A stretch of 64,000 nt of DNA from an uncultured Actinomycetota bacterium (GCA_963819215.1 CAWFVK010000009.1:17267-81266); one strand, 5' to 3'. Counted from the first letter of the stretch, positions 5,661 to 61,690 are shown. Program-made: numbers and translations. The notes: generated by a model not told the origin, from the sequence alone.

Positions 5661-7864
5661 TCAGGCGCCGGGTGACTCGATCAGCAGGCTCATGCCCTGC
5701 AAGGCGTTGAGGGCGATCCCGAAGGCGTGCAGGTTGTCGACGTCGCCGACCTGTTCACCGGTTCCGGTGTCCACCACGGCGGCGCCCGGCGGGAAGAAGT
5801 CCGAGCGCACGCTGCCGGCGACTGGCTCGTTGGCGAAGTTGAGCACGGTCGCCTGCACCCTGCCGTCGGCCAGCTCGTGGACGAGCACGAGCAGCCCCGG
5901 GTGGGAGACGTCCGGGATGTCGACCTGGCGCGCGGTGGCGATCCCGAAGGCCTTGCGGATCGCCAGGATGTTGCGCAGCCCGCTGACGAACGAGTCAGGG
6001 TCCTCGAGCTGGTCGGGGATGGATCCGTAGAGGCTGCGCCCGCGAGGCATCCCCGCCGTGGACTGCTCGGCGGAGGGGTTGAGCGCCATGAGGTCGTGGG
6101 CGCCGCGGTGGATCCAGCGGGTGTCGCCGTCGGCGAGCAGGTGGGGGATCCGGGCCGGATCGAGCGGCAGCATGCCGCTGAGGTCCCAGCCGGAGAGCGC
6201 GAACACTCCCGGCTGCAGCGCGTTGTACATGGCGAGCAGCAGGTGCGCGCGTCGGACCTGCTCGACGTCGGCCGCGGTGAGGTCGTCGAGGACGTCGCAG
6301 CCCGAGGGCAGCCGTGGCCACGCTCGCCATGGTGCAGGCGATGCCGTTCTGGGTGAACAGCAGGTTGTACGGTCCGCGCTCGCCGCTGAGGTTCTCGATG
6401 AGCTCGCGACGGATGGTCCTCGCCAGCTCGGCTCCGGTGATGTCCTCGCCGCGGAAGAGGTAGGTCGTCAGCGGCGTGCACGTCCTCGAAGTGCACGAGC
6501 TCGTAGGTGAGCTCGTCGTGGTTCTGCAACGCGTGGACGAGGGAGGCGGGGTCGATGCCCACGCGCTGGCCCTCGCGCAGAGTGAGCCGCAGGAAGTCCG
6601 TGTTCCCGGTCGCGAGGGCGTGCTGGTAGGCCGGGCGGGTGATGAAGTCGTAGGAGAGGTCAGCCCCCGCCTCGGAGGTCACCTTGATGTCGTCCATCGA
6701 GAGGTTGAGCTCCTGGAAGGTGAAGCCGCCGACCTTGCGCACCATGCTCGCGATCAGCTGGTTGGCGGCGTCCGACAGCGGGTGGCCCTCGGACCAGGCC
6801 GGCGTGCCCTCGGTGCTCTTCTCGACACCGAGGAACCCGTTGGCGTCGAGCCGCAGCCCGCCGGCGCCCAGGTCGGTGAGCGAGTGCAGGGCGTCCCCGA
6901 TGACCAGGCGCATGCCCGCGAACGACGGGTCGAGCCAGTTGATCGAGGGCTGGCCCTCCTTGAAGTAGTGGAGGTACACCCATCGGCGGTCCACGCCATC
7001 CACCCCGCGGACGACGTCGCTGGCGCTCCAGTTGGTCTCCTTCACGCCCTCGGCGAAGAAGATCACGCGCTGCAGGGCGCCGACGATGTAGCCGGCCCTG
7101 GCGAGCAGGCGCTCGGACTCCGCGCTGATGTTCGCCGAGTCCCTGCCTGGCGCGACGTCCGGCAGCAGGCCCCAGTCCGCCGGGTCGATCTCGACCATGT
7201 GGTAGATGCCGGGGTAGTCGGTGTAGCCCATCTCGGCGAGGCGGAAGTCCGCACCCTTGCCGGTGTGGCCCGGGACGATGTCGTCGATCACGGTTCCGCC
7301 GAAGGTCGCCGCGGCGCTGCAGAGCTCGCGGTACTCCTCGGCGGTCCCGAAGACCGGGTCGATCTGCGTGGTGATGCGGTCGAAGTGCCCGTCGACGGTC
7401 GGTGTCGCCCGCCAGCCCCGCAGCCCACCTGCTGACTTCACCGGTCCGGTGTGGACCGCCTCGATCCCGATGTGGCTGAAGGCCTTCCAGAGGTTCTCGT
7501 CGCCGAGCGTGGTGAGGAACGAGGTTCCCGGCGCGTTGAGCAACGAGATCGGGTACGCCGTGAACCACACCGACGCCGTCTCGACAGCCGCGCGCGGGTC
7601 GGGGCGGGCGAAGGGGTTCTGCCACATGATCCCGGTGCCGGAGAGCTGGCGCGCGATCGTCTTCGCGTACTGCAGCATGGACTGCTCGACGAGCCATGCG
7701 ACGTACGCCGGGTTCTCCGACGTCGCCGGCCCGTGCTGGCCGGAGGGTGTGACGGTGGTGCCGTTGCTCCGCTGTCGCGCGACGGCACGCAACGGCCGCG
7801 GCCTGGCAGGGAAGAACCGCTCGGCGTAGGTGTGCTCGCTGCCCGTCTGCTCCGTCTCTTCCAC
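5661..7864 (-). pseudogene. GH13 alpha-amylase-family glucosyltransferase/hydrolase (TreY/TreS-like), two frameshifts as sequenced
   Basis: The N-terminal ~460 aa (ORF 5690..7864) has GH13 features: [20 protein letters not shown] and [10 protein letters not shown]. Protein sense moves to a second frame near 6478 ([44 protein letters not shown]). It moves to a third frame near 6312 and joins ORF 5661..6230 (..[33 protein letters not shown]..). Confidence 0.8.
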
Positions 7865-7891
7865 CGCGGCATTCTGTCAGTGCAAGCTGTG

Positions 7892-8506
7892 CTAGGCGTG
7901 CACCAGCTCCTGCTCGATCCGGCGCAGCCGCGGGGACGACGACTCGAGCACGACCAGCGAGCAGGCGGTGCTGAGAGCGACCATGGCGGAGATCACGACG
8001 GGGACGTCGCCGGCGAGCAACGCATAGCTCAACCAGCAGGTCTGGGAGCCGATCTTGACGACCCACGTGGTGACCGAGACGCCGGACGGAGCGCCGGAGC
8101 GCCAGGTCCCGATCGAGTCGAAGACCTGCGGCCAGGTCGAGAGCAGACCGATCGCGAACGCGAGGTAGCCCACCTCGTGCGCCGGCATCAAGCAGGCCGC
8201 CGTGACCAGGACGGCGCCCGCCGCGGCCAGGCGCAGCCCGCGCTGGCCGGGGGAGAGCGCGCTCGGCACCAGCAGCACGATCGCCACCGCGCCGGCGACG
8301 AGCAGCACGTTCCCCGGCACCTGCGGCCAGGTCGCGGTCCGCAGGCCGTAGGTGAGCCAGGCCGTGCAGGCGAGTGCTCCCAGCGACCAGGACAGCGGGG
8401 ACACCCCGCCCAGTCGCGGGTGCCGGATCGTGCGCAGGATCTGCGGGACCACCATGCACACCCCGAGTGCCGCACCCGTGTACCCGAGCGCCGTGCCGAT
8501 CTCCAT
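7892..8506 (-). CDS. PQ-loop / SWEET-like transporter with 7 predicted TM helices (3+1+3)
   Basis: The real start is MEIGTALGY (ATG 8506..8504) inside ORF 7892..9349, giving 204 aa. There are two PQ motifs (MVVPQILRT and STWPQVFDS), each at the end of the first helix of a 3-helix bundle, with a linker helix between them. Confidence 0.75.
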   Translation of the reverse strand: MEIGTALGYTGAALGVCMVVPQILRTIRHPRLGGVSPLSWSLGALACTAWLTYGLRTATWPQVPGNVLLVAGAVAIVLLVPSALSPGQRGLRLAAAGAVLVTAACLMPAHEVGYLAFAIGLLSTWPQVFDSIGTWRSGAPSGVSVTTWVVKIGSQTCWLSYALLAGDVPVVISAMVALSTACSLVVLESSSPRLRRIEQELVHA

Positions 8507-8590
8507 CACGTCCTGCTTCCTTGCCTGCGTCGTCCGACGTCCTGGGTGGTCGCTGCGACCGCGCTGTCCCCAGCGACGGCCACGTTTGTT

Positions 8591-8604
8591 CTGTAACGAT
8601 ACAG
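8591..8604. promoter_or_regulatory. candidate LacI-type operator (imperfect palindrome CTGTAACGATACAG)
   Basis: A 14-bp near-palindrome (6 of 7 half-site matches) in an AT-rich island. It lies between the divergent PQ-loop gene (start 8506) and the LacI gene (start 8662). It resembles the TGTAAnCGnTTACA class of LacI/GalR operators. Confidence 0.45.
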
Positions 8605-8661
8605 TACGAGAAGGTCCAGGCCTGCCCTCTTTGTTCCCGGGGCCCGGACCAGGGAGGACCC

Positions 8662-9713
8662 GTGAGCAGCAGGCGGCCGACGCTGGACGATGTCGCGGCG
8701 CTCGCCGGGGTCTCCCGGATGACGGTGTCGAACGCGTACAACCGCGCCTGACCAGCTCTCGGCGTCGACCAGGCTGCGGGTGCTGGAGGCCGCGCAGTCG
8801 CTCGGGTACCCCGGGTCCGACCCGGCGGCCCGCTCGTTGCGCAGGGGGCGGGTGGGTGCCGTGGGCGTCCTGCTGACCGAGCGCCTGCCCTACGCGTTCA
8901 CCGATCCGGGTCTCGTCCAGCTGCTGCGCGGGGTGGCGACCGCGCTGTCCGACGCAGGGCAGGGACTGCTGCTCGTGCCGACGATCGAGGGCGAAGGGCC
9001 GGCGCTGGTGCGGCAGTCCCTGGTGGACGCGTTCATCCTCTGCTCCGTCCCCGCCGGTGATCCCGTCGTCGCCGCGGTCCAGGAACGCCGGCTGCCGATG
9101 GTGACCGTCGGCAGCCCCAAGCTGCGCGGGGTGCCCTTCGTCGGGATCGACAACGAGGGCGAGGGGCGGGCTGATGGCGCGGCACCTGCTCGGGCTGGGG
9201 CACACCAGGCTGGTCGCGCTGGATGCCTCCAGTGGCGAGGCGGGGGAGCCGCCGCGCCCCGGCATGCGCTCGCGGATCCTCGGCTTCGTCAAGGAGTGCG
9301 AGAAGGAGCTCGGGCCGGGCTGCGTCCAGCAGGTCGAGGCGGAGAGCAACGACCGCTTCGGCGGACGGCACTGCCATCGGTCCGGTGCTGGGCCGTCGAC
9401 GCGAGCGTCCGACCGCGGTGTTCGCCTCGACCGACGTGCTGGCGCTGGGCGTCATGGACGAGGCCGCGGCCCGCGGGCTGGCGGTCCCCGGGCAGCTCTC
9501 GGTGGCCGGGTTCGACGACATCGACGCCGCGGCCGGGCCGTGCCAGCGTTGACGACTGTGCGGCAGCGGTTGACCGAGCAGGGTCGCATCGCCACCACGC
9601 TTGCCCTCGCCCAGGTCGTGGGCGAGGCCGTCAAGGTGCCCAGGCTGGCCACGCAGCTGGTCGTCAGGGACAGCACGGGACCCGTGCCGGGCGCGGGACG
9701 TACCTCTCGATGA
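8662..9713 (+). pseudogene. LacI-family transcriptional regulator, about 4 frameshifts as sequenced
   Basis: GTG at 8662 follows AGGGAGGA. The HTH reads PTLDDVAALAGVSRMTVSNAYNR. Sense then continues in other frames: RLRVLEAAQSLGYPG..VGIDNEG (ORF 8780), MARHLLGLGHTRLVAL.. (ORF 9174), TAVFASTDVLALGVMDEAAARGLAVPGQLSVAGFDD (ORF 9223) and PALTTVRQRL..* (ORF 9174 tail). Shifts fall near 8748, 9172, 9362 and 9546. Confidence 0.85.
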
Positions 9714-10714
9714 CAGCTACCGAGGGTTCGTCGCGCGAGGTCGTCGCTCGGGCCGAGGCCGCTGCGGCTGCGCGGGCGCTTCGGTGTCGACCCCGGTTCG
9801 GTCGAGCTCGTGCGGCTGGGCGTCAACGCGGTCTTCCGTGCTGAGCATGCCGAGCACGGCACGATCTACCTTCGCCTCACGGACCCCGCGTGGCGGTCGG
9901 CTGCCGTGCTCGGTGGCGAGCTGGACTGGCTGGATGCGCTCCAAGGTCCGGTCGGCTCCGGGTGCCGCGACCGCTCGCGACGGCTCGGCGACGGCAGCCG
10001 CGTGGTCGAGGGACCGACGACGCTTGCCTGCGCTTTCACCTCGGTGGCCGGGACGGCGCCGGACGAGGTGGGGCTCGAGGGCTGGCTCGGCTCGTTCGGG
10101 CTTCGGGTCGGTGCCGCCATCGGCGAGCTGCACGCCAGCGCACCAGCGCCCGGCACCGTCCTGCGTCCCAGCCTGGACCGAGGACTTCGCGCGCATCTGT
10201 GCCGCGATCGCCATGCACGATCCGGCGCTGGGCCCCGTCGCGTCGCCGCCGTCGAGGAGGCCGCGCTGCTGCCGGCGACCCGGGTGCTGCTGCACGACGA
10301 CATCTACGCGTCGAACCTGCTGGTCGACCGCACCGACCCCGCCGCGCCGCTCGGTCTCGTGGACTTCGACCAGGCCTGCTACGGCTTCTTCGCGCTCGAG
10401 CTCGTCGGCCCCTTCTACCCGCACTTCTTCTTCCCCGGCGTCGCCCTTGCGAGGCGCAGATGCCGCGGCAGCGAAGACCTTCCTCGACGTGCTGGTCGAG
10501 GGCATCGCCAGCCCGGACGACGATGCCCGCCGACGCGTTGTCGCTGCTGCCGGTCGCCTTGCTGCTGAAGGAGGTGCAGGTGTACAGCCTGCTGTGCGCC
10601 CACCCGGCCGACTGGGCGGTCGCGCTGGGTCTGCCCGTCGACGTGCTGGCCTCGGCCATCGCGGGCATGCGGTCGCGCATCGTGGCGGGCGAGCCGGTGT
10701 GGGACCCGCGATGA
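9710..10714 (+). pseudogene. phosphotransferase-family (APH/choline-kinase fold) protein, about 5 frameshifts
   Basis: The ATG overlaps the LacI stop (ATGA). Fragments lie in three frames: VRLGVNAVFRAEHAEHGTIYLRLT, WTEDFARICAAIAMHDPALG, VLLHDDIYASNLLVDRTDPAAPLGLVDFDQACYG (the kinase HxDxxxxN...D motifs) and LLLKEVQVYSLLCAHPADWAV...WDPR*. Confidence 0.75.
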
Positions 10715-10727
10715 GCGGGCTTCCCCG

Positions 10728-11425
10728 GTGCACGCCCCGGACGAGGAGGCGCTGGAGTCTGTGCGGCTCGCGGTGTACCGAGGCTTCGCTGCGGAGGGCG
10801 TGGCACCGTCGAGCGCCGCGCTCGCAGCAGGCGCCGGGCTGGACGGGCCGTCGGTCGCCGCTGCGCTGCGGGAGCTCGCGGTGCGCCGGCACCTCGTGCT
10901 CGACGCCGCGGGGGAGATCGTGCTCGCCCATCCGTTCTCGGCGGTGCCGCTGGGCTTCTCGGTCATGGGCGAGCGCACGTTGTGGTGGGGCGGGTGCGCG
11001 TGGGACTCCTTCGCGATCCCGCACCTGGTGCCCGGGGCTGGGCGCCCGGGGCAGCAACGCCGTGCTGGTGGCCACCCGTTGCCCGGCCTGCGGTGCGAGC
11101 GCATGCCTGGGACGTCGGCACGGCCGACGCCTCCGGAGGGCGACGCAGGTCGCGCACTTCCTGGTCCCGGCCGCGCGCATGTGGGACGACGTCGTCCACA
11201 CGTGCGGCAACCAGCGCATCTTCTGTCGACGAGGGCTGCGTCGATGCCTGGCTGGCACGTACCGGTCAGGCGCAAGGGGTACGTGATGACCCTCGAGACG
11301 CTGTGGAACCTTGCGGCGCACTGGTACGAGGGCCGCCTCGAGCGTGGCTACCAGCGCGGGAACCAGCACGCGCCGCCGAGTACCTCCGCGGCGTCGGCCT
11401 GCACGGCCCGTTCTGGGGCAGCTGA
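10728..11425 (+). pseudogene. alkylmercury (organomercurial) lyase MerB-like protein, 6 or more frameshifts
   Basis: Fragments: LRELAVRRHLVLDAAGEIVLAHPFSAVPLGFSVMGERTLWWGGCAWDSFAIPHLV (a MerB-like C..D active-site context), VAHFLVPAARMWDDVVHTCGNQRIFC, DEGCVDAWLARTGQAQG, YVMTLETLWNLAAHWYEGRLERGYQR and REPARAAEYLRGVGLHGPFWGS*. They are spread over all three frames. Confidence 0.65.
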
Positions 11426-11447
11426 TCCGAACCGGGGCCGGGCGGCG

Positions 11448-12480
11448 TCAGGCCGACTTGCGGTCCACCGCCTTCGCAGCGGGTGCCGCCTTCCCAGCTG
11501 GCGTGCCGCCTTCTTCGCGGCCGCGCTCTTCTTGGCTGGCGTGCTCTTCTTGGCTGCCGAAGCCTTCTTCGCGGAGGCCTTCTTCTGAGCCGGCTGCGGA
11601 CTTGGTGGCTGTGCTCGCAGGCTTCGCCGCAGCTGCCGTCTTCTTGGCAGGGGCGGTCTTGGATGCCCCATCCCCTCTCTGGTCGGGGAGGTCTGCGGCA
11701 CTCGGCGCACGGCCCGCCTTGGCTGCGGCGACGCTGGCGCGCAGCGCCTCCATCAGGTCCAGCACCTTGCCGGTGCTCCGGCTCGTCAGCGAGGGCCTCG
11801 ACCGGCTTGCCGCCTGCCTTCGCGTTGACCATCGTCAGCAGGGCGGCGCGGTAGTCGTCGTGGTACTCGTCCGGGTCGAAGTCGCTGCTCAGGGCGTCGA
11901 CGTAGGAGCTCGCCATCGCCAGCTCCTGCGGGCGCACCGTGACATCGTCGTCGATGCCCTTCAGCGCGGGCTCTCGGATCTCGTCCGGCCACAGCATGGT
12001 CTGCAGCACCAGCACGTCACCCTGGGCGCGCAAGGTGGCCAGCCGTTCGCGCTGGCGCATGGCGATCTTCACCACGGCGACCCGGCCGGCGTCGACGAGG
12101 GTGTCACGCAGCAGCGCGTAGGGCTTGCTGTCGGCGCTCGGCTCCGCGTAGTAGGCCTTGGACAGCGCGACCGGGTCGATCTGCTCGGCCGGCACGAAGG
12201 TCAGCACCTCGATGGCGCGCACGGTCGGGATGGGCAGCGTCGCGAAGTCTTCGTCCGTCAGCATCACGGTGTCGCCGTCGGGGCGCTCGTACCCCTTGGC
12301 GATGTCGGAGTAGGGGACCTCCTCGCCGTCGATCGAGCAGACGCGCTTGTAGCGGACGCGCCCACCGTCGGCCGCGTGCACCTGGTGGAAGCTGATGTCC
12401 TTCTCCTCGGTCGCGCTGTAGAGGCGGATCGGGATCGACACCAGCCCGAACGAGATCGAGCCTTTCCAGACACTGCGCAC
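11448..12480 (-). pseudogene. ku: Ku (NHEJ DNA end-binding protein) with a lysine/alanine-rich C-terminal tail; 3 frameshifts, all in the tail
   Basis: GTG at 12480, then RSVWKGSISFGLVSIPIRLYSATEEKDISFHQVH.. is the canonical bacterial Ku core, intact to about 11775. The tail continues in other frames: VLDLMEALRASVAAAKAG.., KKASAKKASAAKKSTPAKKSAAAKKAA and ..AAKAVDRKSA*. Confidence 0.85.
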
Positions 12481-12864
12481 GACGCCTCCAACCCCTCCGT
12501 CACCCCGGCCGCTCTCGATCATTCCCCACCGCGAGGCGCCCGACACGCCGTCGGGCTGACCAGCTCTGTCGAGTGGGTGATGTCACCGTGGGCTGGTCGG
12601 TACGGGCCGGCGAGCGACCGAGGGGAGCAGGGCGACATGACAGTGGCGATGGTGGCTGAGGTGCCGGTCGAGCTCGACCATCGAGCTCTGGCTCGCTGGT
12701 GAGGTGCGCTGGCTCTGGTGCGCGGACTGCTCGGCGGAGCACCTGTTCGAGCGGCCGCCGTGCGACGACGCCCACGTTGACGGGTGCCTCGAGTGGGTCT
12801 GCACCGGCTGCGGGGCGGCCCAGCTCTGGTAGGCCGCCCCGGCGCGTGTGCGTGGGTGGGGTGT

Positions 12865-14622
12865 CTAGAGGATCGTGACGAGGCCGGTGCTGCCGTTGAC
12901 CTCGATCAGCGCTCCGTCGGGGATGCGCAGCGTGGCGTCCTGCGCGGACACCACGCACGGCACCCCGAGCTCGCGGCTGATGATCACCGCGTGCGTGATG
13001 ACTGCCCCGACGTTGACGACCACCGCGGCCGCGGGGACGAACAGCGGGGTCCAGGCAGGGTCGGTCTGCGGCGCGACCAGGATGTCCCCCGGCTCGAACA
13101 GACCGGTCTCGAACGGGTCCGTCACGATGCGCGCGATGCCGCGGGCGATGCCGGGAGCACCTGGCGTGCCCTGGATGGTGTCGCCCGTGCCGAGCAGGCT
13201 TCGCCGAGGATGCCGTGTCCGCCCGCCGGGGCCACTCGGACAGCGGCAGCGGCTCGGTGAGGAAGAAGGGCGGGTCGAGCTCGTAGAGCGCCAGGTAAGC
13301 AGGGACGCGCGCCGCGATCTCGTCCTTGAACGACTCCGGGTTCGCGACGAAGGCGTCGAGCTCGCTCTCGAGGAGCATGGTGATGTCGTGGTGGTCGGTC
13401 AGGATGCCGCGCTCGACCATCCGGTGGCCGAGCTCGAACACGGCCACCCTCATCTCGTTGGCGATCCGGATGCAGGCGGTCTTGGTGCGCTCCGCGCCAT
13501 GGCATGAAGCGAGCCGTGGACGCCGCGCCGGCGAGGAACGCTGCGCGCTCGGCGGGATCGTCGAGGCGGCCTGCGAGCTCTGCGGTCAGTGCCTCGCGCT
13601 TGGCGATGTTCTCGTGCAGGATCCGGACCGGGTCGCGTGACTCGTCGCTGCGGCGCATCTGGTCGATGAGGGCCAGCGCCATCTCGGGCCTGGTCTCCCA
13701 GCTGTCGCTGCGGAGGTCCCACTCGTTCGGTGCGCGGGAGCCGAACTCGTAGGTGAACGTCTCGAACTTCTCGACGAACTGGCGGGCGGCGTCGTCATCG
13801 CTGGCCTGCAGCGTGGCGAGGACGTCCTGGATGGGTCCCTCGAACGCCTGGGTGACGACCGCGGAGCCGGCCGCGATCCGACCGAGCTCCCACATCGCGT
13901 AGGACGGCTTCGCCGAGTCGACGTCGCCGATGCCGCTGATCAGGCTGCCGAGCTGGTCGATCTCGCCGAGCTTCATCAGCAGCGGGGCCATGGTCGTGAT
14001 CCCGACCACGCTGAAGACCGTCGCCGGGCAGTGCCACTTGTAGGAGAACGCGAGGTCGCCGGTGAGCGACGCGCGCGCGGTCGACGAGCTCCTGGTCGCT
14101 GACCGAGGCGAGGTCCGGGCGGCTCTCGCGGTCGGCCTTGGCGCGGGCCTTGGCCTCCTCGACCTCAGGGAACGTGGTCGTCGTCAGCGCCCACTCGCCC
14201 TTCGCGATCAGGCGCTGGGTGATCTCCGGGTCCTCGTCCGAGTCCCGGTGCTCCTGCGGCGGGATGTCGTCGCGGTCGCCGATCCATGCCTGGTTCCACG
14301 TCTCGACGGTCATGCCCGGCATGCGGGCGCCGATGATCGCGGTGATCGGCAGGCCGATGTAGTGGTAGCCGCCGAAGAACCCGGCGCCCTCGGGCCACTC
14401 CTCGTCGATCTCGTCCGGGCGGTGCGTGCCCTGGCAGACGGGGTCGGTGTATCCCTCGCGGCGCCCGACCTCGACGCCGAGGTGCCAGACCAGGGTCGAG
14501 TTGAGCGGGCTGGAGGGATCAGGAAGGACCTCGCCGGCGTTCGCCCGCGTGTACTGCGGATAGCGCTCGCTGAAGGGCCAGTCGCTGATGTACCGGTCGT
14601 CGGGCACCGTTGTGCTCATCAA
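12865..14622 (-). pseudogene. PEP-utilising enzyme family protein with a swivel (mobile) phosphohistidine domain, about 4 frameshifts
   Basis: N-terminal ORF 13795..14622, middle ORF 13122..14009 (..FETFTYEFGSRAPNEWDLRSDSWETRPE..), ORF 12500..13453 (..LGHRMVERGILTDHHDITMLLESELDAF..), then ORF 12865..13125. The last encodes the mobile domain GDILVAPQTDPAWTPLFVPAAAVVVNVGAVITHAVIISRELGVPCVV. Confidence 0.75.
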
Positions 14623-14810
14623 GTCTCCTAGCCCGAAGCAGCGTCAATGGTCGGCGCCACCTGCGGGGTCGACGGCGCCGTCGAGGAGTGCACTGGCGTG
14701 CGAGCGTAGGTCGACCCGAAGATGAGGTAGCAAGAGTTTCTCAACAGTCATTGGTGTTGGGACTCAGTGGTGCTGGAGCTGGTGCTCCTGCCGGCCGTCG
14801 AGGGACCGGG

Positions 14811-15364
14811 TCAGGAGGTCGTGGTCGCGCTGGCGGAGGGGGTCGCGGAGGCTGACCCTGCCGCCTTGGGTGCAGGGATCCCGACGACGAGCGCGTTCGC
14901 GCCGTCGCCTGACTTCCCGCCGAGCACCCGGACCGTCTCGCCCGTCTTGAGGTCGCTGAGGCTGCCCTTCTTGCCCGCGTCCCGGACCCGGGTGGTGGAG
15001 CTCAAGGCCCAGGTGAGCGTGTAGCCGTCGGTGCTCTTGACGGTCATCGAGCTCGAGCTCAGCGCGGTCACGGTGCCTCGCTGCGCGTCGAACGTCTGCA
15101 CGCCCTTGCGCGTCTGGACGGTGAACTCGCCGTGCAGGGCCCGCCCTTCGAGCCTGCCCAGGCGGCCGAGCGCGCGCGGCGCGCTGGCCGCCGGCCTTCG
15201 CGTGCGTGGTGCTCGGCGCCGGCGAGGCAGTGGTTGCCGTCAGGGCGGTGCTCGATCCCGACGTTCTCGCTCGCGAGCGCGACCCCGGCGAAGGTTCCGA
15301 CGGCAAGCACGCCGGCGGCGCCCCAGGCACCGACCTTGACTGCCGTGCGTCCGCTGATGCTCAT
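14811..15364 (-). pseudogene. secreted hypothetical protein, 2 or more frameshifts
   Basis: A signal-peptide-like N-terminus MSISGRTAVKVGAWGAAGVLAVGTFAGVALA (ORF 15068..15364). A conserved-looking C-terminal beta-rich part VQTFDAQRGTVTALSSSSMTVKSTDGYTLTWALSSTTRV.. (ORF 14811..15101). The connecting segment reads sensibly only in the third frame. Confidence 0.5.
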
Positions 15365-15583
15365 GCTTCCTCCGTGTGTGTGGGGACGTCGCCCGGTCGT
15401 GGGTCCGCCCGGCGTCCAGCCGTGAGCGCCACCTCTAGTGTCGGCCCCGTCAGGTCGCGCTGCGGTTCAGCGAGTGTTCGGGTCAGGTAAGGGTCCACGG
15501 AGCCCGCCCGGCTGGCGCCGGACATAGGCTCTGGGTGCTCGCGGATGCCTGCTCGCGACCGGAAGATGACCCGAGGAGAACCG

Positions 15584-25878: not shown

Positions 25879-26014
25879 GGTGCGCTCCTTCGCTCGTGGC
25901 ACCCGGTGCGGGCGCCTTCACCCCTGGGTCGGAGCTGCCCTCGGATTCTCGACATCCCCAGGCGCCGAGCACAAGCGAGGTCGCGCCGGGTGTGGACGAG
26001 CGTGCCACGGACTC

Positions 26015-46674: not shown

Positions 46675-47646
46675 CTACGAGCCGACCGCCGCCAAGCGGC
46701 GGAACCCCTCGTCGAGATCGACCGCGGGCGTCCAGCGCAGGACCTCCCGGGTCTCCCGCTGGTCGAACCAGTGCGCGGTAGCCAGCTGCTCCGCCAGGAA
46801 CCGCGTCATGGGCGGATCATCGGAACGCCGCAGCACGGCCCAGGCTGCTTCAGCGACAGCTCCGGCGGCCTGGGCGGCCCGGAACGGCAGGCGCAGCGTC
46901 GGATCGGGAGCGCCCACCGCAGCGCAGATGCTGCTGACCAGCTCCGCCACCGTCCGGGGCTGGCCGTTCGACACGACGAAGGCCCGTCCGTGGGCCGGCC
47001 CGTCGGGCGTCGCGCGATCGAGGGCGGCGACTATGGCGTCGGCCGCGTTGTCGACGTAGGTCGTGTCGATCAGTGCCGCGCCCTGGTCGATCAGCGCCAG
47101 CCGTCCGGAGCGCGCTCGTTCGGCGATCCGGCCAACCAGCTGGGTGTCGCCCGGGCCCCAGACGAGGTGCGGCCGGACGGCCACCACCGCGAGCCCCGGG
47201 CTGTCCGCCGCCAGCGCGATGAGCTCCGCCTGTGCCTTGCTGCGTGCGTAGTGCCCACGGGCGGCTGCCGGATCTGCCGGCGCGGCTCCGACCCCCACGA
47301 GGGACCGCCCGGCGTGCCCGACCGACGGCGAGGACACCTGCACGAACCGGCCGACGCCCGCTGCCCGGGCGGCCGCGAGCGCGTTGGCGGTGCCAGCGAC
47401 GTTGACGGCAGCGAAGTCGCGCCACGGTCCGGTGACGGCGACCTTCGCCGCCAGGTGGACCACCGCATCCGTCCCCGCCGCGGCCGCATGGAGCGCGTCG
47501 AGGTCGGTGACGGAACCGCGAACCTCCTGCCACGGCCCGCTCGACGCGCCGCGCTGGAACACCGTGACCTCGTCCCCGCGGTCAGCGAGGGACCGGGCGA
47601 CGGCGCGGCCGAGCATCCCGCTCGCCCCGGTGACCAGGACGCGCAC
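46675..47646 (-). CDS. oleD: OleD: NAD(P)H-dependent 2-alkyl-3-ketoalkanoate reductase (3-beta-HSD/epimerase family)
   Basis: The GTG at 47646 lies 1 nt after the oleBC stop. VRVLVTGASGMLG Rossmann motif and YARSK catalytic Tyr-x3-Lys. It is the last gene of the oleA-oleBC-oleD arrangement. Confidence 0.8.
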   Translation of the reverse strand: MRVLVTGASGMLGRAVARSLADRGDEVTVFQRGASSGPWQEVRGSVTDLDALHAAAAGTDAVVHLAAKVAVTGPWRDFAAVNVAGTANALAAARAAGVGRFVQVSSPSVGHAGRSLVGVGAAPADPAAARGHYARSKAQAELIALAADSPGLAVVAVRPHLVWGPGDTQLVGRIAERARSGRLALIDQGAALIDTTYVDNAADAIVAALDRATPDGPAHGRAFVVSNGQPRTVAELVSSICAAVGAPDPTLRLPFRAAQAAGAVAEAAWAVLRRSDDPPMTRFLAEQLATAHWFDQRETREVLRWTPAVDLDEGFRRLAAVGS

Positions 47647-47647
47647 G

Positions 47648-50449: not shown

Positions 50450-51468
50450 CAGAGGATCTCGCTGAAGGCGGTGTTCAGGCCCGAGCCGATGCCCATGCAG
50501 AGCACCCGGTCGCCGGGGTTCAGCACCTCGACCTGGTGCGCGAGCGTCAGCGGGACCGAGGCCGGGCCGATGTTGCCGAGCAGCGGGAAGGTGAGCGGCA
50601 CGCGGTCGGTGTCGATGCCGAGCTTGGCGCACAGCGCGCTGGTGTGCACCGAGGAGACCTGGTGGAGGACGTAGCAGTCCATGTCGGACCAGTCGTGCTC
50701 GGGCTTCGCGGCGAGCCAGGCGGCCTCGGCGAGCGCCAGGCCGGCGTCGAGCAGGCCCTTGGTGTCGGTCCGCATGTGCTCGAGGTCGCCGACGCACAGC
50801 TGGTTGTGCTCGGTACCGGAACGCGCGACGCCGCCGAGCAGGCGGTGCGCCCCCGGGTGCTGGTCGGCGGGGCCGAGGACCATCGCTGCGGCGCCCGAGC
50901 CGAGGGTCAGCGTCGCGAACTCGGCGAAGAGGTCCTCGACGGTCGTGTCGGGCCCGGAGAGCCGGCGGATCGTGGCCTGCTGGGTGGCTCGGCTGTCCTC
51001 GCCATCCACGATCAGGGCGTACTCGATGTGGCCGGCGTCGATCATCGTGCCGGCCAGGTGCATGGCGTTCACGAAGCCGAGGCAGGCGTTCGCGAGGTCG
51101 AAGTTGAGACAGGAGGTCGGCAGCCCGAGGCTGTGGTGAACCTCGACGGCCGCCGACGGCTCGAGGTGCGCTCGGCAGACGGAGCTGTTGATCATGAGGC
51201 CGAACCGGTCGGGATCGATGCCGGACTCGGCGATGGCCTTCGCGCCGGCCATCGCGGCGGCCTCGGCGAAGGTGACGTCTTCCGGCCACCAGCGGCGCTC
51301 GTGGATACCGGCCAGTCCCTGCAGCAGCCCTGGCCGGAGACCGAGCCTGGTGAGGGTCTCGACGAGCTGGTCGTCGAAGTCGGCCGACGTGACGACCTGG
51401 GGCCCTTCCACCGAGGACACCGCGAGGATGGCCGTGTTGGAGTGGCTGTATGTCGAGTTGCCGTTCAT
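50446..51468 (-). CDS. oleA: OleA: thiolase-fold (FabH-like) acyl-CoA condensing enzyme
   Basis: Intact 340 aa. NFDLANACLGFVNAM (active-site Cys), HQVSSVH and GNIGPASVP (His/Asn of the FabH-type triad). It is the first gene of the ole arrangement. Confidence 0.85.
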   Translation of the reverse strand: MNGNSTYSHSNTAILAVSSVEGPQVVTSADFDDQLVETLTRLGLRPGLLQGLAGIHERRWWPEDVTFAEAAAMAGAKAIAESGIDPDRFGLMINSSVCRAHLEPSAAVEVHHSLGLPTSCLNFDLANACLGFVNAMHLAGTMIDAGHIEYALIVDGEDSRATQQATIRRLSGPDTTVEDLFAEFATLTLGSGAAAMVLGPADQHPGAHRLLGGVARSGTEHNQLCVGDLEHMRTDTKGLLDAGLALAEAAWLAAKPEHDWSDMDCYVLHQVSSVHTSALCAKLGIDTDRVPLTFPLLGNIGPASVPLTLAHQVEVLNPGDRVLCMGIGSGLNTAFSEILW

Positions 51469-51569
51469 GCCCGTCCCTTCGAACGATCAACGGGGCATGC
51501 TCGACACCGTCGACCTGCGAGGGTCCACTTTCTCATGAACCGGCCCCGCGGACGGACCGCGGCGCCCCG

Positions 51570-55524: not shown

Positions 55525-55655
55525 GGGCGGACCTTAACGGGAGCCGCCGGCGGCCTCAGCCAGACGCCTCGCGGCGGTGAATGACATCGATGGGATTTGC
55601 CCCCTACGATGGGGCAGGCGGCCCGGGAGGGGAAGCCTGGGCCGCTCTAGACGCT

Positions 55656-55712: not shown

Positions 55713-55752
55713 CGGCTCCAGCCGGTTGGTGGACAGGAAGGAGCTGAGACCA

Positions 55753-56058: not shown

Positions 56059-56071
56059 TCCGCCCGCCTCC

Positions 56072-56744
56072 ATGTCCGAGGTAGGTCCGACCGGCGGGAC
56101 CGGTCCATCATCCGTGCCGCCACCCGGCCAGCCCCGCGGCGCGCATCGCGCTCGGCGTGGACTGCCGGCCCGGCTGATCCTGCCGATCCTGCTGGGGTTC
56201 TTCGTGGTGTGCCTGTCCGCCGTCGCGGTGATCGGCTGGCTGAACAAGCCCAGCGACCACGCGGCTCCCGTGGTCAGCCCGACGGCCAGCCCCAGCCAGT
56301 CCGGCTCCGCCTCGGACACCCCGAGCAACAGCCCGACGCCGTCGGAGATCGAGACCACCCCGACGCCGACGGCGAGCCCGACGACGCCGACCCCGTCGAA
56401 GCCGCCGACCGCGCCACCCACGACGCCACCAACGACGCCACCAACGACCCCGCCGCCCACGCCGCCGCCGGTCGTGTATGCCCCCGCCGTCGTGCTCAAC
56501 CAGACCAGCATCCACGGCCTGGCGCTGACCGTGGCGAACCGGCTCCGACAGGAAGGCTGGACCATCACCGGCGTCGGGCAACTGGCGCGGGTCGGTGCCC
56601 AGCACCACGGTCTACTACCCGGCCGGCATGGAGGCCGCCGCCCGGTCGCTGGCCGCCGCGCTGGGGACCGATCGCATCAAGCCGGTGCTCGCCCACATGC
56701 TGCCGGGCCGGCTCTCGGTCATCCTCACCAGCAACCCGTTCTAG
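56072..56744 (+). CDS. LytR C-terminal (LytR_C) domain membrane protein with a Pro/Thr-rich linker (1 frameshift near 56578 as sequenced)
   Basis: TM anchor, then (TTPP)n linker with a 12-bp repeat at 56420-56455. VVLNQTSIHGLALTVANRLRQEGWTITGVG then continues in the next frame: NWRGSVPSTTVYYPAGMEAAARSLAAALG...LSVILTSNPF*. Confidence 0.75.
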
Positions 56745-56757
56745 GCGCTGGCTAGGA

Positions 56758-57550
56758 ATGGGCGCGCTTCTCGACTCCGTCCTGGCGGCGATGGACGCTG
56801 ATCCATCGCACGCGCTCGTGGTCGTCGACTTCGACGGCACCCTCGCCCCGCTGGTCGCTGATCCGCTCGCCGCCGCCCCCTTGCCGGGCGCGATCGAAGC
56901 GCTCGTCGACCTCGCCGGGCGGATCGGGCAGGTGGCGGTGCTGACGGGTCGCCAGGCCGAGGTGGCGGTCCGGCTGGGAGGGCTGGAGCGCGTTCCTCGG
57001 CTCGTGGTGCTCGGGCTGTACGGCGCCGAACGGTGGGACGCCGAGACCGCGGTGCTGCGGTCCGCCGAGGTACCCGCCGGGATGGCCGGGCGCCCGCGCA
57101 GAGGTGGAGGCGCTGGTCGCCGAAGCACCGGCGGGGGTGGGGCTCGAGGACAAAGGCTCGTCGATCGCGGTGCACACCCGGCGCACGGCGCACCCGGACG
57201 CGACGCTCGCCGCCCTCATCCCCTCGCTGCAGCGCATCGCGGCGGACCACGATCTCCTCGCCGAGCCGGGGAAGCTGATCCTGGAGATCCGGGGCCGGGG
57301 CATGGACAAGGGCATCGCGCTGCGGGAGCTCGTCCGGGCCACGGGTTCCGCGGCGGTGCTCTACGCCGGCGACGACCTCGGCGACCTGCCGGCCTTCGCC
57401 GCGGTCAAGCAGCTGCGCGCGGACGGCCTGCCCGCCGTCGGCGTCGCGGTGGCCTCCGAGGGTGCCGATGCGGCGGTTGCGCAGGCGGCGGACGAGACCG
57501 TCTCGGGTCCGCCGGCCTTGCTCGAGGTGCTGCGGCGCATCCGGGCCTAG
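56758..57550 (+). CDS. otsB: trehalose-6-phosphate phosphatase (1 frameshift near 57090 as sequenced)
   Basis: HAD motif I VVVDFDGTLAP. The second part is in ORF 57104..57550 (GLEDKGSSIAVHTRR, ILEIRGRGMDKGIAL, LYAGDDLGDLPAF). Confidence 0.85.
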
Positions 57551-59091
57551 CTCCTGCTGCACTGGTTGAGCGAGCAGCGCCAGCTGGTTCTGGAGCCACA
57601 GGGCCGGTGGCAGCGCGGTGGCCCGGGGAGCGAGACGTTCGGCCCGTGCAAGCCGCTCCGCCGGCGTCCATCGAGAGCGCCGTGTGCAGGGCTTCTGCGG
57701 TCTCGCCGACGTCGTACGGGTTGATGACGAGCGCATCGGCACCGAGCTCGTCGGCGGCGCCGGCCTCACGGCTCAGCACCAGCACGCAGCCCTGCGCGCT
57801 CAGCACCGGGCCTTCCTTGGCGACCAGGTTCATCCCGTCACGCACCGGGTTGACCACCAGCACGTCGGCCAGCTGGAAGGCAGCCAGCGACCTCGGGTAG
57901 TCGTCGTCGACGTCCAGCAGCACGGGCTGCCAGCCCACGTCCCCGAACTCGTCGTTGATCTCGGCAGCCAGCCGCTGCACGGCAGCCGTGTACTCGCGGT
58001 AGACGGGGAGGTCGTGCCGGCTCGGGTAGGCGAACGCGACGTGCATGACGCGGCGGTGCCAGCGTGGCTGCGGCCGCAGCAGCTCGCGGTAGGCCTCCAG
58101 CCCGCGCGACGATGTTCTTCGAGAGCTCCGTGCGGTCGATGCGCAGGATCATCTGCCGGCCGGCCAGCGCCTCGCGCAGGTCTGCGAGCCGGGTGGCGAC
58201 GTCGGGCTGGCTCGCGCGCTGCCGCAGACCGGAACCGTCGACCCCGAGCGGGTGCACGTCGACCGCAGTGGTGCGGCCCCGATGGGTGACGGCCCAGCGG
58301 CGCCACCGGCGCACCACCGGCCGTACCAGCGGCTGTCGCGTCGGGCCCCGCGTCCGCGGCCTGCTGGATGTCGGCCCCGAGGACGTCGGCGCAGCAGTGC
58401 ACGAAGGCCTCGGCCCAGCGCGGTGACAGGAAACCTGCTCGATCGGCACCGAGGATGCCCTCGAGCACGGCCACCCCGACTTGCTCGGGCAGCAGCGCGA
58501 AGTACTCCGGGGGCGCCCAGGGCGTATGCGAGAAGTGCGCGATCCGCAGGTCCGGCCGGAGCTCGCGGAGCTGTCCGGGGTCAGCGTCAGGTGGTAGTCC
58601 TGCACGAGCACCCGCGCGCCTGGCGCCGCCTCGGCCGCCAGCGCCTGGGCGAAGCACTGGTTGTACTCGACGTAGGAGGCCCAGTCCCGCGTGAAGCGGC
58701 TGGAGAAGACGGGCTCGACCGGGGTGTTGAACAGCATGTGGTGCACGAACCACAAGGTCGAGTTGGCCACCGAGCTGTAGGCCCTGCTGAAGGTGCCGGC
58801 GTCGATGTCGAGCATGCGGACGACCGTCTCGGAGTCCGTGCCGCTGTCCTCCGGCGGGACCGGCAACCGGCCGTCCACCGTCGACCGCAGGGCCCGTCGA
58901 TCGGCATCGGAGAGCGCGGCGCACACCCACACGGCACTGCCCGCCGCCGACAGGCCGGAGACCAGCCCGCCGCCGCCACGCCTGGCCACCAGCTCGCCCG
59001 TGTCGGTCACCACGTACGACAGGGGCCCACGGTTCGAGGCGAGCACGACCGGCGCCGTGCCGGCGAGCGAGGCGGGGGTGCGTGCGTCCAC
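57547..59091 (-). pseudogene. otsA: alpha,alpha-trehalose-phosphate synthase (GT20), about 6 frame changes
   Basis: VVLASNRGPLSY.., GGLVSGL, STLWFVHHMLF, VLVQDYHLTL; then LRELRPDLRIAHFSHTPWAPPEYF; GVDG..LREALAGRQMILRIDRTELSKNIV; HVAFAYPSRHDLPVYREY..VNPVRDGMNLVAKEGP.. The fragments rotate through all frames. The proposed stop shares CTAG with the otsB stop. Confidence 0.85.
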
Positions 59092-59100
59092 GAGCCCACC

Positions 59101-60103: not shown

Positions 60104-60230
60104 GGTGGTCCCCTCTCGGCCCTCGCGCCCGTCACCGTCTCGCCAGCCGGACAGCTGGTCTCGCGTGATGGCGGGGTTCGGTACAGTTTCCGTCACGTTC
60201 GCCGTAGCGGCGAGCCACAACTTCATATCG

Positions 60231-60338
60231 CTCATCCAGAGGGGCAGAGGGAACGGCCCGTTGAAGCCCCGGCAACCAGAGCGCAGATGCTCCAGGTGCC
60301 AACTCCGTCCTGCCGAGGATTTCGGCGGGGAAGATGAG
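60231..60338 (+). promoter_or_regulatory. SAM-I (S-box) riboswitch
   Basis: CTCATCCAGAGGGGCAGAGGGAACGGCCCGTTGAAGCCCCGGCAACC...CCAGGTGCCAACTCC...GAAGATGAG matches the S-box core (AUC.AGAG.GG..GAGGGA..GGCCC..UGAA.CC.GGCAACC ... GGUGC.AA.UCC ... GAUGAG). The P1 3' strand GATGAG runs into the SD GAGGAGAGG, 8 nt before the ATG at 60352. Confidence 0.85.
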
Positions 60339-60351
60339 GAGAGGATTCATC

Positions 60352-61690
60352 ATGACCACCGTCACCTCTGTGACAGACAGCTCTGTGACACCCAGCGCGG
60401 TGACACCCAGCTCGGTGACACCACCCGGCCAGCCCCTCGGTCGTCGCCGATTCGAATGCCCGGCCCTACGGCCCCGCGACGGCGCTGGTCTGTCGCGAGT
60501 GTGGTGAGCGGTACGCCCTCGGTGCGCGGTACGCCTGCGACGAGTGCTTCGGGCCCCTCGAGGTCGGCTACGACTTCGGCACCGTCACCCGCGAGCAGAT
60601 CGAGCAGGGTCCCGCCTCCATCTGGCGGTACGCACCGCTCCTGCCGGTCGCCGCGGATCCGAGCGCCCGCCCCGTCGACCTCCAGCCCGGGTGGACCCGG
60701 CTCCACCGCGCGGACAACCTCGCCGCAGCGCTCGGCATGCGCTCCCTGTACGTCAAGGACGACAGCGGCAACCCCACGCACTCGTTCAAGGACCGCGTGG
60801 TCGCCGTCGCGGTGACCGCCGCTCACACCCTCGGGCTCGGCACCATCGCCTGCGCGTCGACCGGCAACCTCGCCGGTGCGGTGGCGGCGGCAGCGGCCAG
60901 GGCGGGGCTGCGCTCCGTGGTGCTCATCCCCGACGACCTCGAGGACGGCAAGACGCTGAACGCCGCGGTCTACGGCGGCTCGCTGGTCGCGGTGCAGGGC
61001 AACTATGACGACGTCAACCGGCTCTGCAGCGAGGTCGCGTTCGACCACCCCGAGTGGGGCTTCGTGAACGTCACGCTCCGCCCGTTCTACGCCGAGGGAT
61101 CGAAGACGGTCGGGTTCGAGATCGCCGAGCAGCTCGGCTGGCGCCTGCCGCAACAGGTCGTCGCCCCGATCGCCTCTGGCTCGCTGCTGACCAAGGTGGA
61201 CAAGGCCTGGCGCGAGCTCGCCGCCCTCGGCCTCGTCGAGACCACGCCGTACCGGGTGTTCGGTGCGCAGGCCACCGGCTGCTCGCCGGTGTCACGAGCG
61301 TTCGCCGACGGGCAGGACGTCGTCCGACCCGTGAAGCCGGACACGATCGCCAAGTCGCTGGCCATCGGCAACCCCGCGGACGGCCCCTACGCGCTCGACG
61401 TCGTGCGGCGGACCGGCGGTGCGATCGCCGACGTCTCGGACACCGAGGTCGTCGAGGGCATCCGGCTGCTCGCCGAGACCGAGGGGATCTTCGCGGAGAC
61501 CGCGGGCGGCGTGACCGTCGCAGTCCTGCGCAAGCTGCTCGCCGAGGGCACCCTCGACCCGGACGCCGAGACGGTGATCCTCAACACCGGTGACGGCCTC
61601 AAGACCCTGGATGCCATCGCCGACGTCGTCGGCCCGACCGTCACCATCCGTCCGTCCCTGGACGCATTCCGAGAGGCTGGCCTGGCGTGA
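60352..61690 (+). CDS. threonine-synthase-like PLP enzyme with N-terminal zinc ribbon (MetM-like; 1 frameshift near 60430-60460 as sequenced)
   Basis: The ATG at 60352 opens a short frame carrying 4 pentapeptide repeats. The main frame has no start codon before 60737 but encodes PYGPATALVCRECGERYALGARYACDECFGPLEV (Cys4 ribbon), KDDSGNPTHSFKDRV (PLP lysine), ACASTGNLAG, NTGDGLK. Confidence 0.8.
60367..60426 (+). repeat. 15-bp tandem repeat x4 at codons 6-25 of the ThrC-like gene (SVTDS-SVTPS-AVTPS-SVTPP)
   Basis: TCTGTGACAGACAGC, TCTGTGACACCCAGC, GCGGTGACACCCAGC, TCGGTGACACCACCC. Each copy carries GTGACA, which puts TGA stops in the adjacent frame. Confidence 0.9.

Follow-up and report, generated by a model that had tools for sequence, protein, structure and literature searches.

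Clustered single-base frame changes in 64 kb of actinomycetotal DNA: probable consensus errors, with a candidate origin in collapsed strain alleles

Introduction

Why should some 20 genes of one bacterium be broken by single-base frame changes? This question is raised by a high-GC, 64-kb stretch of DNA from an uncultured Actinomycetota bacterium, analysed here over its full length and referred to as the window, in which about 60–90 indels interrupt these genes. In the original prediction, made from the sequence, about 80 frame changes had been described as strongly clustered and overwhelmingly of the single-extra-base type, and they were ascribed to local consensus errors, such as low-coverage stretches, rather than to old pseudogenes.

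Results

Number and distribution of frame switches

Frame switches were called across the 64-kb window with a codon-usage Viterbi trace, which avoids stops by its design. The trace yielded 77 same-strand switches over the whole window and about 60 visible ones at a conservative setting; at least three further switches are hidden at 11.03–11.3 kb, and several '−1' switches resolve into two close insertions. The predicted number of about 80 is thus correct in its order of magnitude but not as an exact figure.

Five hot stretches, with the limits given in Table 1, contain 51 switches in 13.7 kb (3.7/kb) versus 26 in the other 50.3 kb (0.52/kb; binomial p = 4e-17), which confirms the strong clustering. 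Most of the non-hot switches that were inspected proved to be ordinary gene borders, the remainder being isolated shifts, and in the stretches described as clean (16.1–22.8, 28.2–37.5 and 43.2–52.8 kb) gene borders only were found.

The clusters had also been proposed to ignore gene borders, and this agrees with the breakpoints observed. The S53 peptidase gene is read in one frame over 26820–27619 (800 nt clean), followed by shifts at 27619, 27727, 27891 and 27985, that is, four within 370 nt; in fdsB, the first error at 39162 lies 173 nt past the ATG at 38989; and four of the verified indels lie between genes (14631, 14713, 14724 and 26013). The errors track position and not gene function, crossing gene borders and affecting non-coding DNA as well. 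The TAA within the peptidase domain was the only in-frame stop found, in keeping with the single stop of the prediction, in a trace that avoids stops and is therefore not exhaustive on this point.

Table 1. Hot stretches, verified indels and phase-derived frame switches in the window (positions from its first nucleotide)
Feature	Position	Strand	Detail and basis
Hot stretch 1	8700–15400		Switches in LacI-like, APH-like, MerB-like, Ku, PEP-utiliser-like and small exported-protein genes, plus intergenic indels; Viterbi; Logan L027 from 14452 on
Hot stretch 2	24200–25400		ECF sigma factor (Sigma70_r2/r4 + DUF6596), ~7 switches; Viterbi, Pfam; Logan L025 25008–26066
Hot stretch 3	27600–28200		S53 (sedolisin-type) peptidase gene, last third; four '+1' switches and in-frame stop; Viterbi, Pfam
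Hot stretch 4	39100–43200		fdsB and fdsA (NAD-dependent formate dehydrogenase beta and alpha subunits), ~22 switches; Viterbi; Logan L026 37862–39641, L028 43089–44068
Hot stretch 5	57500–58600		otsA (Glyco_transf_20), 3 switches; Viterbi, Pfam
Two '+1' switches, GH13-like gene	6295–6471	−	Phase only; Logan L055 stops at 6129, short of both
Extra G, intergenic	14631	+	Absent in Logan L027
Extra G, intergenic	14713	+	Absent in Logan L027
Extra G, intergenic	14724	+	Absent in Logan L027
Extra C, small gene	15171	+	Intact 183-aa ORF in Logan; adjoins third codon position (CGC/CGG)
Extra G, same small gene	15260	+	GTG/GTC; 15171 and 15260 show as one '−1' switch
Extra C, PQQ-repeat gene, isolated	16058	+	Intact 406-aa ORF in Logan; CTC/CTG
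Isolated '+1' switch, ROK regulator gene near 5' end	22789	−	Phase; MarR_2 match rises from 23.5 to 30.1 bits once stitched
Two extra G, 6 nt apart, ECF sigma gene	25309–25315	+	GGG/GGC and GTG/GTC on coding strand; show as one '−1' switch
Missing base (C of CTCCTC), intergenic	26013–26014	+	Logan comparison
In-frame stop TAA within S53 peptidase domain, end of hot stretch 3	28185–28187	+	
Isolated '+1' switch between two ABC ATPase domains, at GDGDGDGD-coding hexanucleotide repeat	37518	+	Phase only
Missing G, fdsB	39162–39163	+	Logan comparison
Missing A (CCA third position), fdsB	39253–39254	+	Logan comparison
Two extra C, 15 nt apart, fdsB	39506–39521	+	GGG/GGC twice; in 190-bp patch with 12 substitutions versus Logan
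Extra G, fdsA near 3' end	43127	+	GTC/GTG; Logan comparison
Extra base, cysH	52877	−	Window GC[T][G] versus GCG in JGI relative; Pfam on stitched protein
Extra base, sulfite reductase gene	53764	−	Window GC[C][G]CCG versus GCC CCG in JGI relative
Isolated '+1' switches, LytR_C gene (56593) and otsB (57087)	56593–57087	+	Phase; Pfam continuous across both

Protein sense across the junctions

Stitching of the translations across the junctions gave single, essentially full-length Pfam matches over several of them. Matches were obtained to Molybdopterin (3–352 of 353), Glyco_transf_20 (40–440 of 473), Peripla_BP_3 (1–167 of 167), DUF6596 (7–100 of 102), PAPS_reduct (3–175 of 175) and Trehalose_PPase (2–219 of 235).

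Comparison with independent contigs

Of the window, 18.3 kb could be aligned, at 98.7–100% identity, with eight contigs assembled by Logan from run ERR11523676. Frame-restoring reads had been named beforehand as the evidence against pseudogenisation, and these read-derived contigs do restore the frames: 10 coding indels account for all seven traced switches in the covered DNA, and the corresponding Logan ORFs are unbroken. Of the 14 indels relative to Logan, 12 lie in hot DNA and four are intergenic; 12 fall in 1,996 covered hot bases and two in 16,323 non-hot bases (p = 2e-10). Zero indels relative to the window were found in L055 (6.1 kb) and L057 (1.2 kb). In a JGI contig from a relative (L056), both cysH (253 aa) and the sir gene are intact. 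Logan contigs often end within or at the edges of hot stretches (14452, 25008, 39641 and 43089), and a Logan protein search for 8.7–11 kb retrieved none.

Because the ERR11523676 contigs are devoid of the extra bases and encode intact genes, the frame changes are, on this sequence comparison, almost certainly mistakes of the assembled consensus and not part of the organism's DNA. The fds, ots, cysH/sir, S53 peptidase, sigma-factor and other disrupted genes should be treated as intact. The Logan contigs thus support local consensus errors over old pseudogenes, with a refinement of the low-coverage wording, since the codon-position pattern described below indicates that the errors are not random noise.

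Direction of the shifts

In the hot stretches, 34 '+1' and 17 '−1' switches were traced (p = 0.02), and at the base level the window has 11 extra and three missing bases in comparison with the Logan contigs. The bias towards insertions is therefore present (about 2:1 for visible switches, 11:3 for bases), 'overwhelmingly' being somewhat overstated; many '−1' switches were seen in fdsB and the ECF sigma gene, those of fdsB including two genuine missing bases (39162 and 39253). The claimed '+1' bias was recovered in full for the peptidase (4/4) and the GH13-like gene (2/2), and for fdsA it persists with a traced figure of about 10–12 of 13 in place of about 12 of 14.

Nine isolated insertions had been listed. 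One extra base was verified in each of the PQQ, cysH and sirA genes, and a '+1' shift was supported by phase in the ABC, LytR_C, otsB and ROK genes; the event in the lipoprotein gene was not located, and the traced switch at 32299 appears to stem from a wrong call of coding sequence ahead of a PadR-like gene. In the ThrC-like gene, the coding signal is present from 60420 and there is no in-frame start before 60737.

Sequence context of the extra bases

All ten base-resolved coding insertions (eight verified by Logan, two supported by JGI) adjoin a third codon position, and in 10/10 it could replace the adjacent third-position base without changing the amino acid (null 0.36; p = 4e-5), the two bases being putative alleles. 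In fdsA, nine of nine further '+1' switches are repaired best at the boundary between codon positions 3 and 1, where two different bases abut, as judged by a reference-guided placement that landed 1 nt off for one control (43127). The codon-position sample is small, comprising these 10 base-resolved and nine reference-guided events.

With respect to run-length error, a same-base neighbour was found for only two of 11 insertions and one of three deletions, and none of these sites lies in a run of four or more. With 2/11 insertions extending a same-base run, the classic homopolymer error type (ONT R9, 454, Ion Torrent, HiFi) was rejected.

Substitutions and a second haplotype

The window and the Logan contigs differ by 48 substitutions over the covered DNA (0–1.3% per contig), so the contigs do not represent the identical haplotype; a second haplotype really exists. 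Of the 29 coding substitutions, 18 are synonymous, compared with a null of 6.9 ± 2.2. Because the substitutions are so strongly biased, the genes are judged to be under purifying selection, a state that cannot be reconciled with a large number of true frameshifts. Substitution density amounts to 11.5/kb in hot DNA (23 substitutions) versus 1.5/kb elsewhere, a 7.5-fold difference, and the last 190 bp of L026, with 12 substitutions, form a patch of ~6% divergence. Substitution-rich stretches free of indels were also found, namely L054 (seven substitutions, zero indels in 1.1 kb) and L058 (five and zero in 2.3 kb).

Discussion

The synonymous third-position pattern suggests that strain polymorphism was collapsed and that thin coverage is not the only cause. 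We propose that the window stems from a long-read metagenome assembly, as suggested by the 472-kb contig, its Flye-style relatives and the error pattern, and that reads from two or more co-occurring strains may have been collapsed into one consensus. Where these strains differ, usually by a synonymous G/C at a third codon position and with neither allele clearly dominant, a consensus model in which deletions are cheaper than substitutions could have written both alleles in tandem during polishing, each read then being accounted for by one deletion. The outcome would be one surplus base, in most cases G or C, outside homopolymers, and such bases would cluster in kb-scale patches of strain divergence or balance regardless of gene borders. 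Because SNP density by itself is no predictor of indels (L054, L058), this mechanism would require something further, for instance balanced alleles or a low depth. Given an artefact, we hold this stacking of alleles to be moderately probable; as a compromise between this and the near-certainty of an artefact, we rate the main reading as a whole as very likely.

A simpler artefact would be a very low depth or an unpolished draft, leaving random single-molecule errors unrelated to strain polymorphism. Such errors would fit the kb-scale patchiness, the insertion bias and the independence of homopolymers, and thin coverage would account for the Logan contig ends at or in hot stretches and for the failure to retrieve a protein fragment from 8.7–11 kb; the SNP-rich yet indel-free L054 and L058 likewise speak for it. 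Random errors should, however, be indifferent to codon position, yet synonymous third-position alternatives were found in ten of ten cases and the same boundary in all nine fdsA events, and the 7.5-fold excess of substitutions in hot stretches, mostly synonymous, represents real variation. We regard this explanation as rather unlikely, an estimate that does not sum with that for the main reading, since low depth is itself an artefact reading.

Real indels would imply that the window belongs to a decaying or locally hypermutated strain and the Logan contigs to an intact sister strain from the same sample, and the 48 substitutions do attest a second strain. In pseudogene-rich reductive genomes such as that of Mycobacterium leprae, many genes are interrupted by frameshifts; true pseudogenes also accumulate stops and non-synonymous changes, arise one gene at a time and are seen in every read. 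The window is alike in its frameshifted genes but shows none of these other traits, and true pseudogenes or genome decay were rejected on the one stop found, the synonymous-biased substitutions and the full-length Pfam matches after stitching. Further, with up to ~13 shifts per gene, one in-frame stop was found in the window; the clusters span gene borders and take in intergenic DNA; and there is no reason for true insertions to adjoin third positions as synonymous alternatives. Hot DNA contains 12 indels versus 23 substitutions, whereas substitutions usually prevail among true mutations in bacteria (PMC12424758). Real indels are hence very improbable. Slightly more remote still is the version in which the insertions are real in one strain. 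In a Ku-encoding lineage, a patch-wise, insertion-prone process such as error-prone repair synthesis would then have added a single G/C every 100–250 bp to tracts of kb scale, too recently for stops or non-synonymous decay to have followed.

Expression despite the shifts, through programmed ribosomal frameshifting, transcriptional slippage or RNA editing, would suit the undamaged appearance of the translated fragments and the shared direction of most shifts, but is extremely unlikely, as the difference exists at the DNA level and near-identical DNA of the same run is without the bases, the 14 verified sites, viewed in 21-nt contexts, showed no slippery heptamer or A/T run, relatives have the genes intact in a single frame (L056), and indels also occur in intergenic DNA.

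A consensus artefact has known counterparts. Nanopore- or PacBio-only assemblies and MAG consensus sequences (Sereika et al. 2022, PMC9262707; corrected by frameshift tools such as proovframe) are alike in their single-base indels, after which sense continues in another frame, and in genes that are otherwise healthy and whose frames are restored by independent data. Classic errors of these platforms concern homopolymer run length; the window differs in that few insertions touch a same-base run, in the excess of insertions over deletions, and in kb-scale patches that are not genome-wide. Strain-collapse polishing errors (metaFlye case in the myloasm preprint, PMC12424758; the strain-separation tool Strainberry, PMC8302730) are alike in co-occurring haplotypes and, on indirect support, in errors where haplotypes differ. 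There, strain heterogeneity in collapsed assemblies is described in general terms only, as lowering consensus quality, and a signature of tandem third-position SNP alleles was not found described in this literature.

The biological importance of the frame changes is low, and their relevance lies in data hygiene. If alleles have indeed been stacked, single extra G/C bases at codon 3|1 boundaries, occurring in patches, would serve as an inexpensive sign, readable without a reference, of polishing errors due to strain collapse in high-GC long-read MAGs, and strain-aware polishing would be favoured over mere added depth. Chimeric or 'fused' ORF products, both the window's own and similar ones from relatives, already form singleton clusters in public protein collections.

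Distribution of Frame Switches

The window has a GC content of 71% and carries genes of actinobacterial type, among them a lysyl-PG synthase-like gene, a CLC channel, a ROK regulator, an FtsX-type permease with two ABC ATPase domains, the fdsGBAD formate dehydrogenase genes, purU, oleA, oleBC and oleD, cysH with a sulfite reductase, otsA, otsB, gpgS, and a ThrC-like PLP enzyme. Reading frames were followed with codon log-odds trained on 14 clean ORFs in a Viterbi trace of seven states (six frames plus non-coding), in which stops were forbidden. The trace stayed in one frame over long distances at 16-24, 28.2-38.4 and 43.9-52.3 kb and switched densely within a strand at 8.7-11.0, 12.9-15.3, 24.2-25.5, 27.6-28.2, 39.0-43.1 and 57.6-58.6 kb, reproducing the alternation of clean and clustered stretches described in the original prediction. 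At the baseline penalty, 51 switches were found in the 13.7 kb of hot stretches (8.7-15.4, 24.2-25.4, 27.6-28.2, 39.1-43.2 and 57.5-58.6 kb) versus 26 in the other 50.3 kb (binomial p = 4e-17), and most of those examined among the 26 were ordinary same-strand gene borders.

The total number of switches varies with the method. About 60 were visible at a conservative setting, at least three more are hidden at 11.03-11.3 kb (frames +2, +0, +1, +2), which the trace called non-coding, and several '-1' switches (one base missing or two extra) are two separate insertions each; the figure of about 80 frame changes proposed originally is therefore plausible. The claimed prevalence of single extra bases proved to be real, with 34 '+1' versus 17 '-1' switches in the hot stretches (p = 0.02), but weaker than 'overwhelmingly'. 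Nine '+1' switches follow each other in fdsA from 41226 to 43132, and the shifts in the peptidase (4/4) and in GH13 (2/2) are, as previously reported, all of the extra-base type; many '-1' switches occur in fdsB and the sigma-factor gene. The single in-frame stop that had been noticed was located as a TAA at 28185-28187, within the peptidase domain. Bounding of the shift sites by stop codons was dropped, since a GC content of 71% leaves wrong frames free of stops for as many as 1,000 codons and stops localise nothing.

Translations stitched along the trace look like normal proteins and gave single, essentially full-length Pfam matches spanning several junctions, namely Molybdopterin (profile positions 3-352 of 353), Glyco_transf_20 (40-440 of 473), Peripla_BP_3 (1-167 of 167), DUF6596 (7-100 of 102), Complex1_51K (10-142 of 150), PAPS_reduct (3-175 of 175), Trehalose_PPase (2-219 of 235) and LytR_C (6-68 of 86). 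We conclude that the frame changes are really in the record, at the places where they had been described.

Comparison with Independent Contigs

Exact look-ups placed the clean window proteins in NCBI and ENA, all on one 472,089-bp contig, and several of the small ones also in Logan, a collection in which the public reads of each sequencing run are assembled into contigs separately. A search with the clean FtsX permease among GTDB species representatives and JGI metagenomes yielded no relative above 57-61% amino acid identity over more than 200 residues, which is unusable for calling single bases. Small intact genes shared by the window and Logan led to eight contigs, all from run ERR11523676 and 98.7-100% identical to the window (Table). 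A query with the 734-aa LacI/APH/MerB translation from 8.7-11 kb found no Logan fragment for that stretch, matching only distant LacI proteins.

Features, alignments and frame switches in window coordinates
Feature	Position	Strand	Details
Logan contig L055	17-6129		0 indels; 2 substitutions
Logan contig L027	14452-18184		6 extra bases in window; 9 substitutions
Logan contig L025	25008-26066		2 extra, 1 missing in window; 3 substitutions
Logan contig L054	28436-29577		0 indels; 7 substitutions
Logan contig L058	32989-35257		0 indels; 5 substitutions
Logan contig L026	37862-39641		2 extra, 2 missing in window; 19 substitutions
Logan contig L028	43089-44068		1 extra base in window; 3 substitutions
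Logan contig L057	54629-55871		0 indels; 0 substitutions
Frame switch	15191		indels 15171 and 15260
Frame switch	16055		indel 16058
Frame switch	25329		indels 25309 and 25315
Frame switch	39158		indel 39162
Frame switch	39300		indel 39253
Frame switch	39497		indels 39506 and 39521
Frame switch	43132		indel 43127
Ku (NHEJ) gene	11586-12486	minus	'+1' switch at 11773
PadR-like regulator	31758-32299	minus	
ABC ATPase switch	37480-37530		'+1', isolated
fdsB end / fdsA start	40195-40700		
ole cluster	46679-51471	minus	
oleD-like ORF	46679-47718	minus	NAD-dependent epimerase/dehydratase
oleBC-like ORF	47719-50450	minus	2.7 kb
oleA	50446-51468	minus	
CspA-family protein	62008-62208		66 aa

Over 18.3 kb of comparison, 11 bases are extra in the window and 3 are missing from it. 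Of these 14 indels, 12 lie in hot stretches, of which 1,996 bases are covered (6.0/kb), and 2 lie in the 16,323 covered bases elsewhere (0.12/kb; p = 2e-10). Every traced frame switch within Logan-covered DNA is accounted for by these indels. The Logan counterparts are single open frames, comprising a 183-aa protein, a 406-aa PQQ-repeat protein, the sigma-factor N-terminus, the fdsB N-terminus and the fdsA C-terminus; independently assembled reads thus restore the frames, the outcome that the original prediction had named as refuting pseudogenisation. Four of the indels are intergenic (14631, 14713, 14724 and 26013), in agreement with the earlier remark that the clusters ignore gene borders and implying an error process that is blind to genes. 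On a JGI contig of about 83% DNA identity (L056), cysH (253 aa) is intact and adjoins the sulfite reductase gene, and comparison with this contig resolved the isolated events in these two genes as one extra base each, at 52877 and 53764.

Strain Variation and Selection

The 48 substitutions between the window and the Logan contigs revealed that the haplotypes are not identical. Among the 29 coding substitutions, 18 are synonymous, compared with 6.9 ± 2.2 when the same base changes were placed at random coding positions; 18 was reached in none of 5,000 simulations. This excess implies that the substitutions are true differences between strains that have passed through purifying selection, and the genes are, as judged from the substitution pattern, functional in the population. 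Ten indels that destroy the reading frame lie in the same DNA of the window. With about half as many indels as substitutions, the hot stretches do not match the outcome of real mutation and selection, and a real patch-wise insertion process operating in one strain is highly improbable.

Substitutions are 7.5 times denser in the hot stretches (11.5 vs 1.5 per kb). Twelve, mostly synonymous, fall within the final 190 bp of L026 (window 39450-39641, L026 1590-1781), corresponding to about 6% divergence, and two insertions sit in the same 190 bp; the first 1.2 kb of this contig diverge from the window by about 0.2%. The patch, at the point where the Logan contig stops, resembles a haplotype segment that has diverged locally and may have recombined. 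G<->C transversions make up 13 of the 29 coding substitutions, versus 11 transitions. Natural polymorphism as a whole does not usually show such a pattern, but third positions locked to G or C should; part of these changes may also be consensus artefacts.

Sequence Context of the Inserted Bases

Homopolymer miscounting was rejected as the source of the extra bases, because only 2 of the 11 insertions touch an identical neighbour; the inserted base is G or C in all 11. All eight Logan-verified coding insertions directly adjoin a third codon position, the extra base being a synonymous alternative of the base there (GGG/GGC, GTG/GTC, CGC/CGG, CTC/CTG, GTC/GTG), and both JGI-supported insertions follow the same pattern (GC[T][G] and GC[C][G], both Ala). 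For a random G or C placed next to the other strong base this is expected in 36% of cases, so that 10/10 corresponds to p ~4e-5.

In fdsA, each base around the '+1' switches was deleted in turn and the repaired peptide was scored against 20 homologues. All nine further switches were best repaired at the boundary between codon positions 3 and 1, with two different bases side by side (GC, TC, C-GG, G|C, C-GG, G|C, AG, GC and C|G), as determined by a scan that is cruder than the Logan alignment and placed the known site 43127 1 nt off. Among the switches read locally, only that between the two ABC ATPase domains lies in repetitive sequence, a GACGGC hexanucleotide repeat coding GDGDGDGD.

Proposed Origin of the Extra Bases

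The codon-position bias suggests that polymorphism is involved, as only polymorphism 'knows' codon position. We infer from the sequence context that the extra bases may be stacked alleles: where two co-occurring strains differ at a site, the consensus step would write both alleles in tandem, an outcome that a likelihood model would prefer if deletions were cheaper than substitutions and neither allele was dominant. Writing both alleles at a polymorphic site would explain the insertion bias, the G/C identity of the insertions (given the share of G/C swaps among the coding substitutions), their non-homopolymer context, their patchiness and their indifference to gene borders. Allele stacking alone leaves SNP-bearing but indel-free stretches, such as 28.4-29.6 kb, unexplained, and something in addition would be needed, for example balanced alleles or low depth. 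The three bases missing from the window resemble consensus deletions of the ordinary kind.

The frame changes, confirmed in substance as an observation, are not biological, and their original reading as local consensus errors is supported and sharpened. Frameshift-causing indels are well documented in nanopore-only and other single-molecule consensus sequences; a depth of about 40-fold is recommended for near-finished genomes (PMC9262707), and one large long-read MAG catalogue was built with Flye and a single Medaka round without short reads (PMC12313526). These circumstances, together with the Flye-style relatives and the error pattern, suggest that the window stems from a long-read metagenome assembly.

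The fds loci of relatives in public data are damaged in the same way as that of the window. In an ENA contig with a Flye-style name (L024; ERZ25039524 contig_17882, the source of homologue P0004), fdsA is split into ORFs of 925, 297 and 98 aa and a fused fdsB-fdsA ORF is present, so that this contig looks frameshifted, too. The closest FdsA/FdsB homologues in a collection of 5.8 billion proteins (P0001-P0020) are singleton clusters of odd length, 775-1286 aa, that mix Complex1_51K (NuoF) and Molybdopterin domains as 'fusions'. Their use as individual frame references was dropped after frameshift-aware alignments against different homologues disagreed outside the common core, and they served only collectively, in the fdsA repair scan. 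Frameshifted long-read assemblies seem to put chimeric products into public protein sets.

Further Sites

In the window itself, the traced frame contains no stop between fdsB and fdsA, and frame +2 is open from 39495 to 42593; this continuity reflects either a true lineage fusion or hidden indels at about 40600-40720, where the reference alignments disagree. For the ThrC-like PLP enzyme, coding signal and homology begin at 60420 and no in-frame ATG, GTG or TTG precedes 60737, which implies a true start upstream in another frame and would add one more indel near 60400-60450.

The Ku gene, located within the first hot stretch, encodes a full Ku beta-barrel domain, and its switch lies ahead of a Lys/Ala-rich C-terminal tail. 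A frameshift at 32299 was rejected: the segment 32300-32472 upstream of the PadR-like gene, although traced as coding, is off-frame-like, Ala/Val/Arg-rich sequence. At its N-terminus, the PadR-like regulator itself has an unusual tract of (F)GGFGGPG repeats. All ORFs of the ole hydrocarbon-biosynthesis cluster are free of frame switches, with an overlap of about 70 nt between the oleBC and oleD-like ORFs. The CspA-family cold-shock protein clusters at 90% with a named JGI/IMG protein and is the only checked window protein with a named outside partner at that level.
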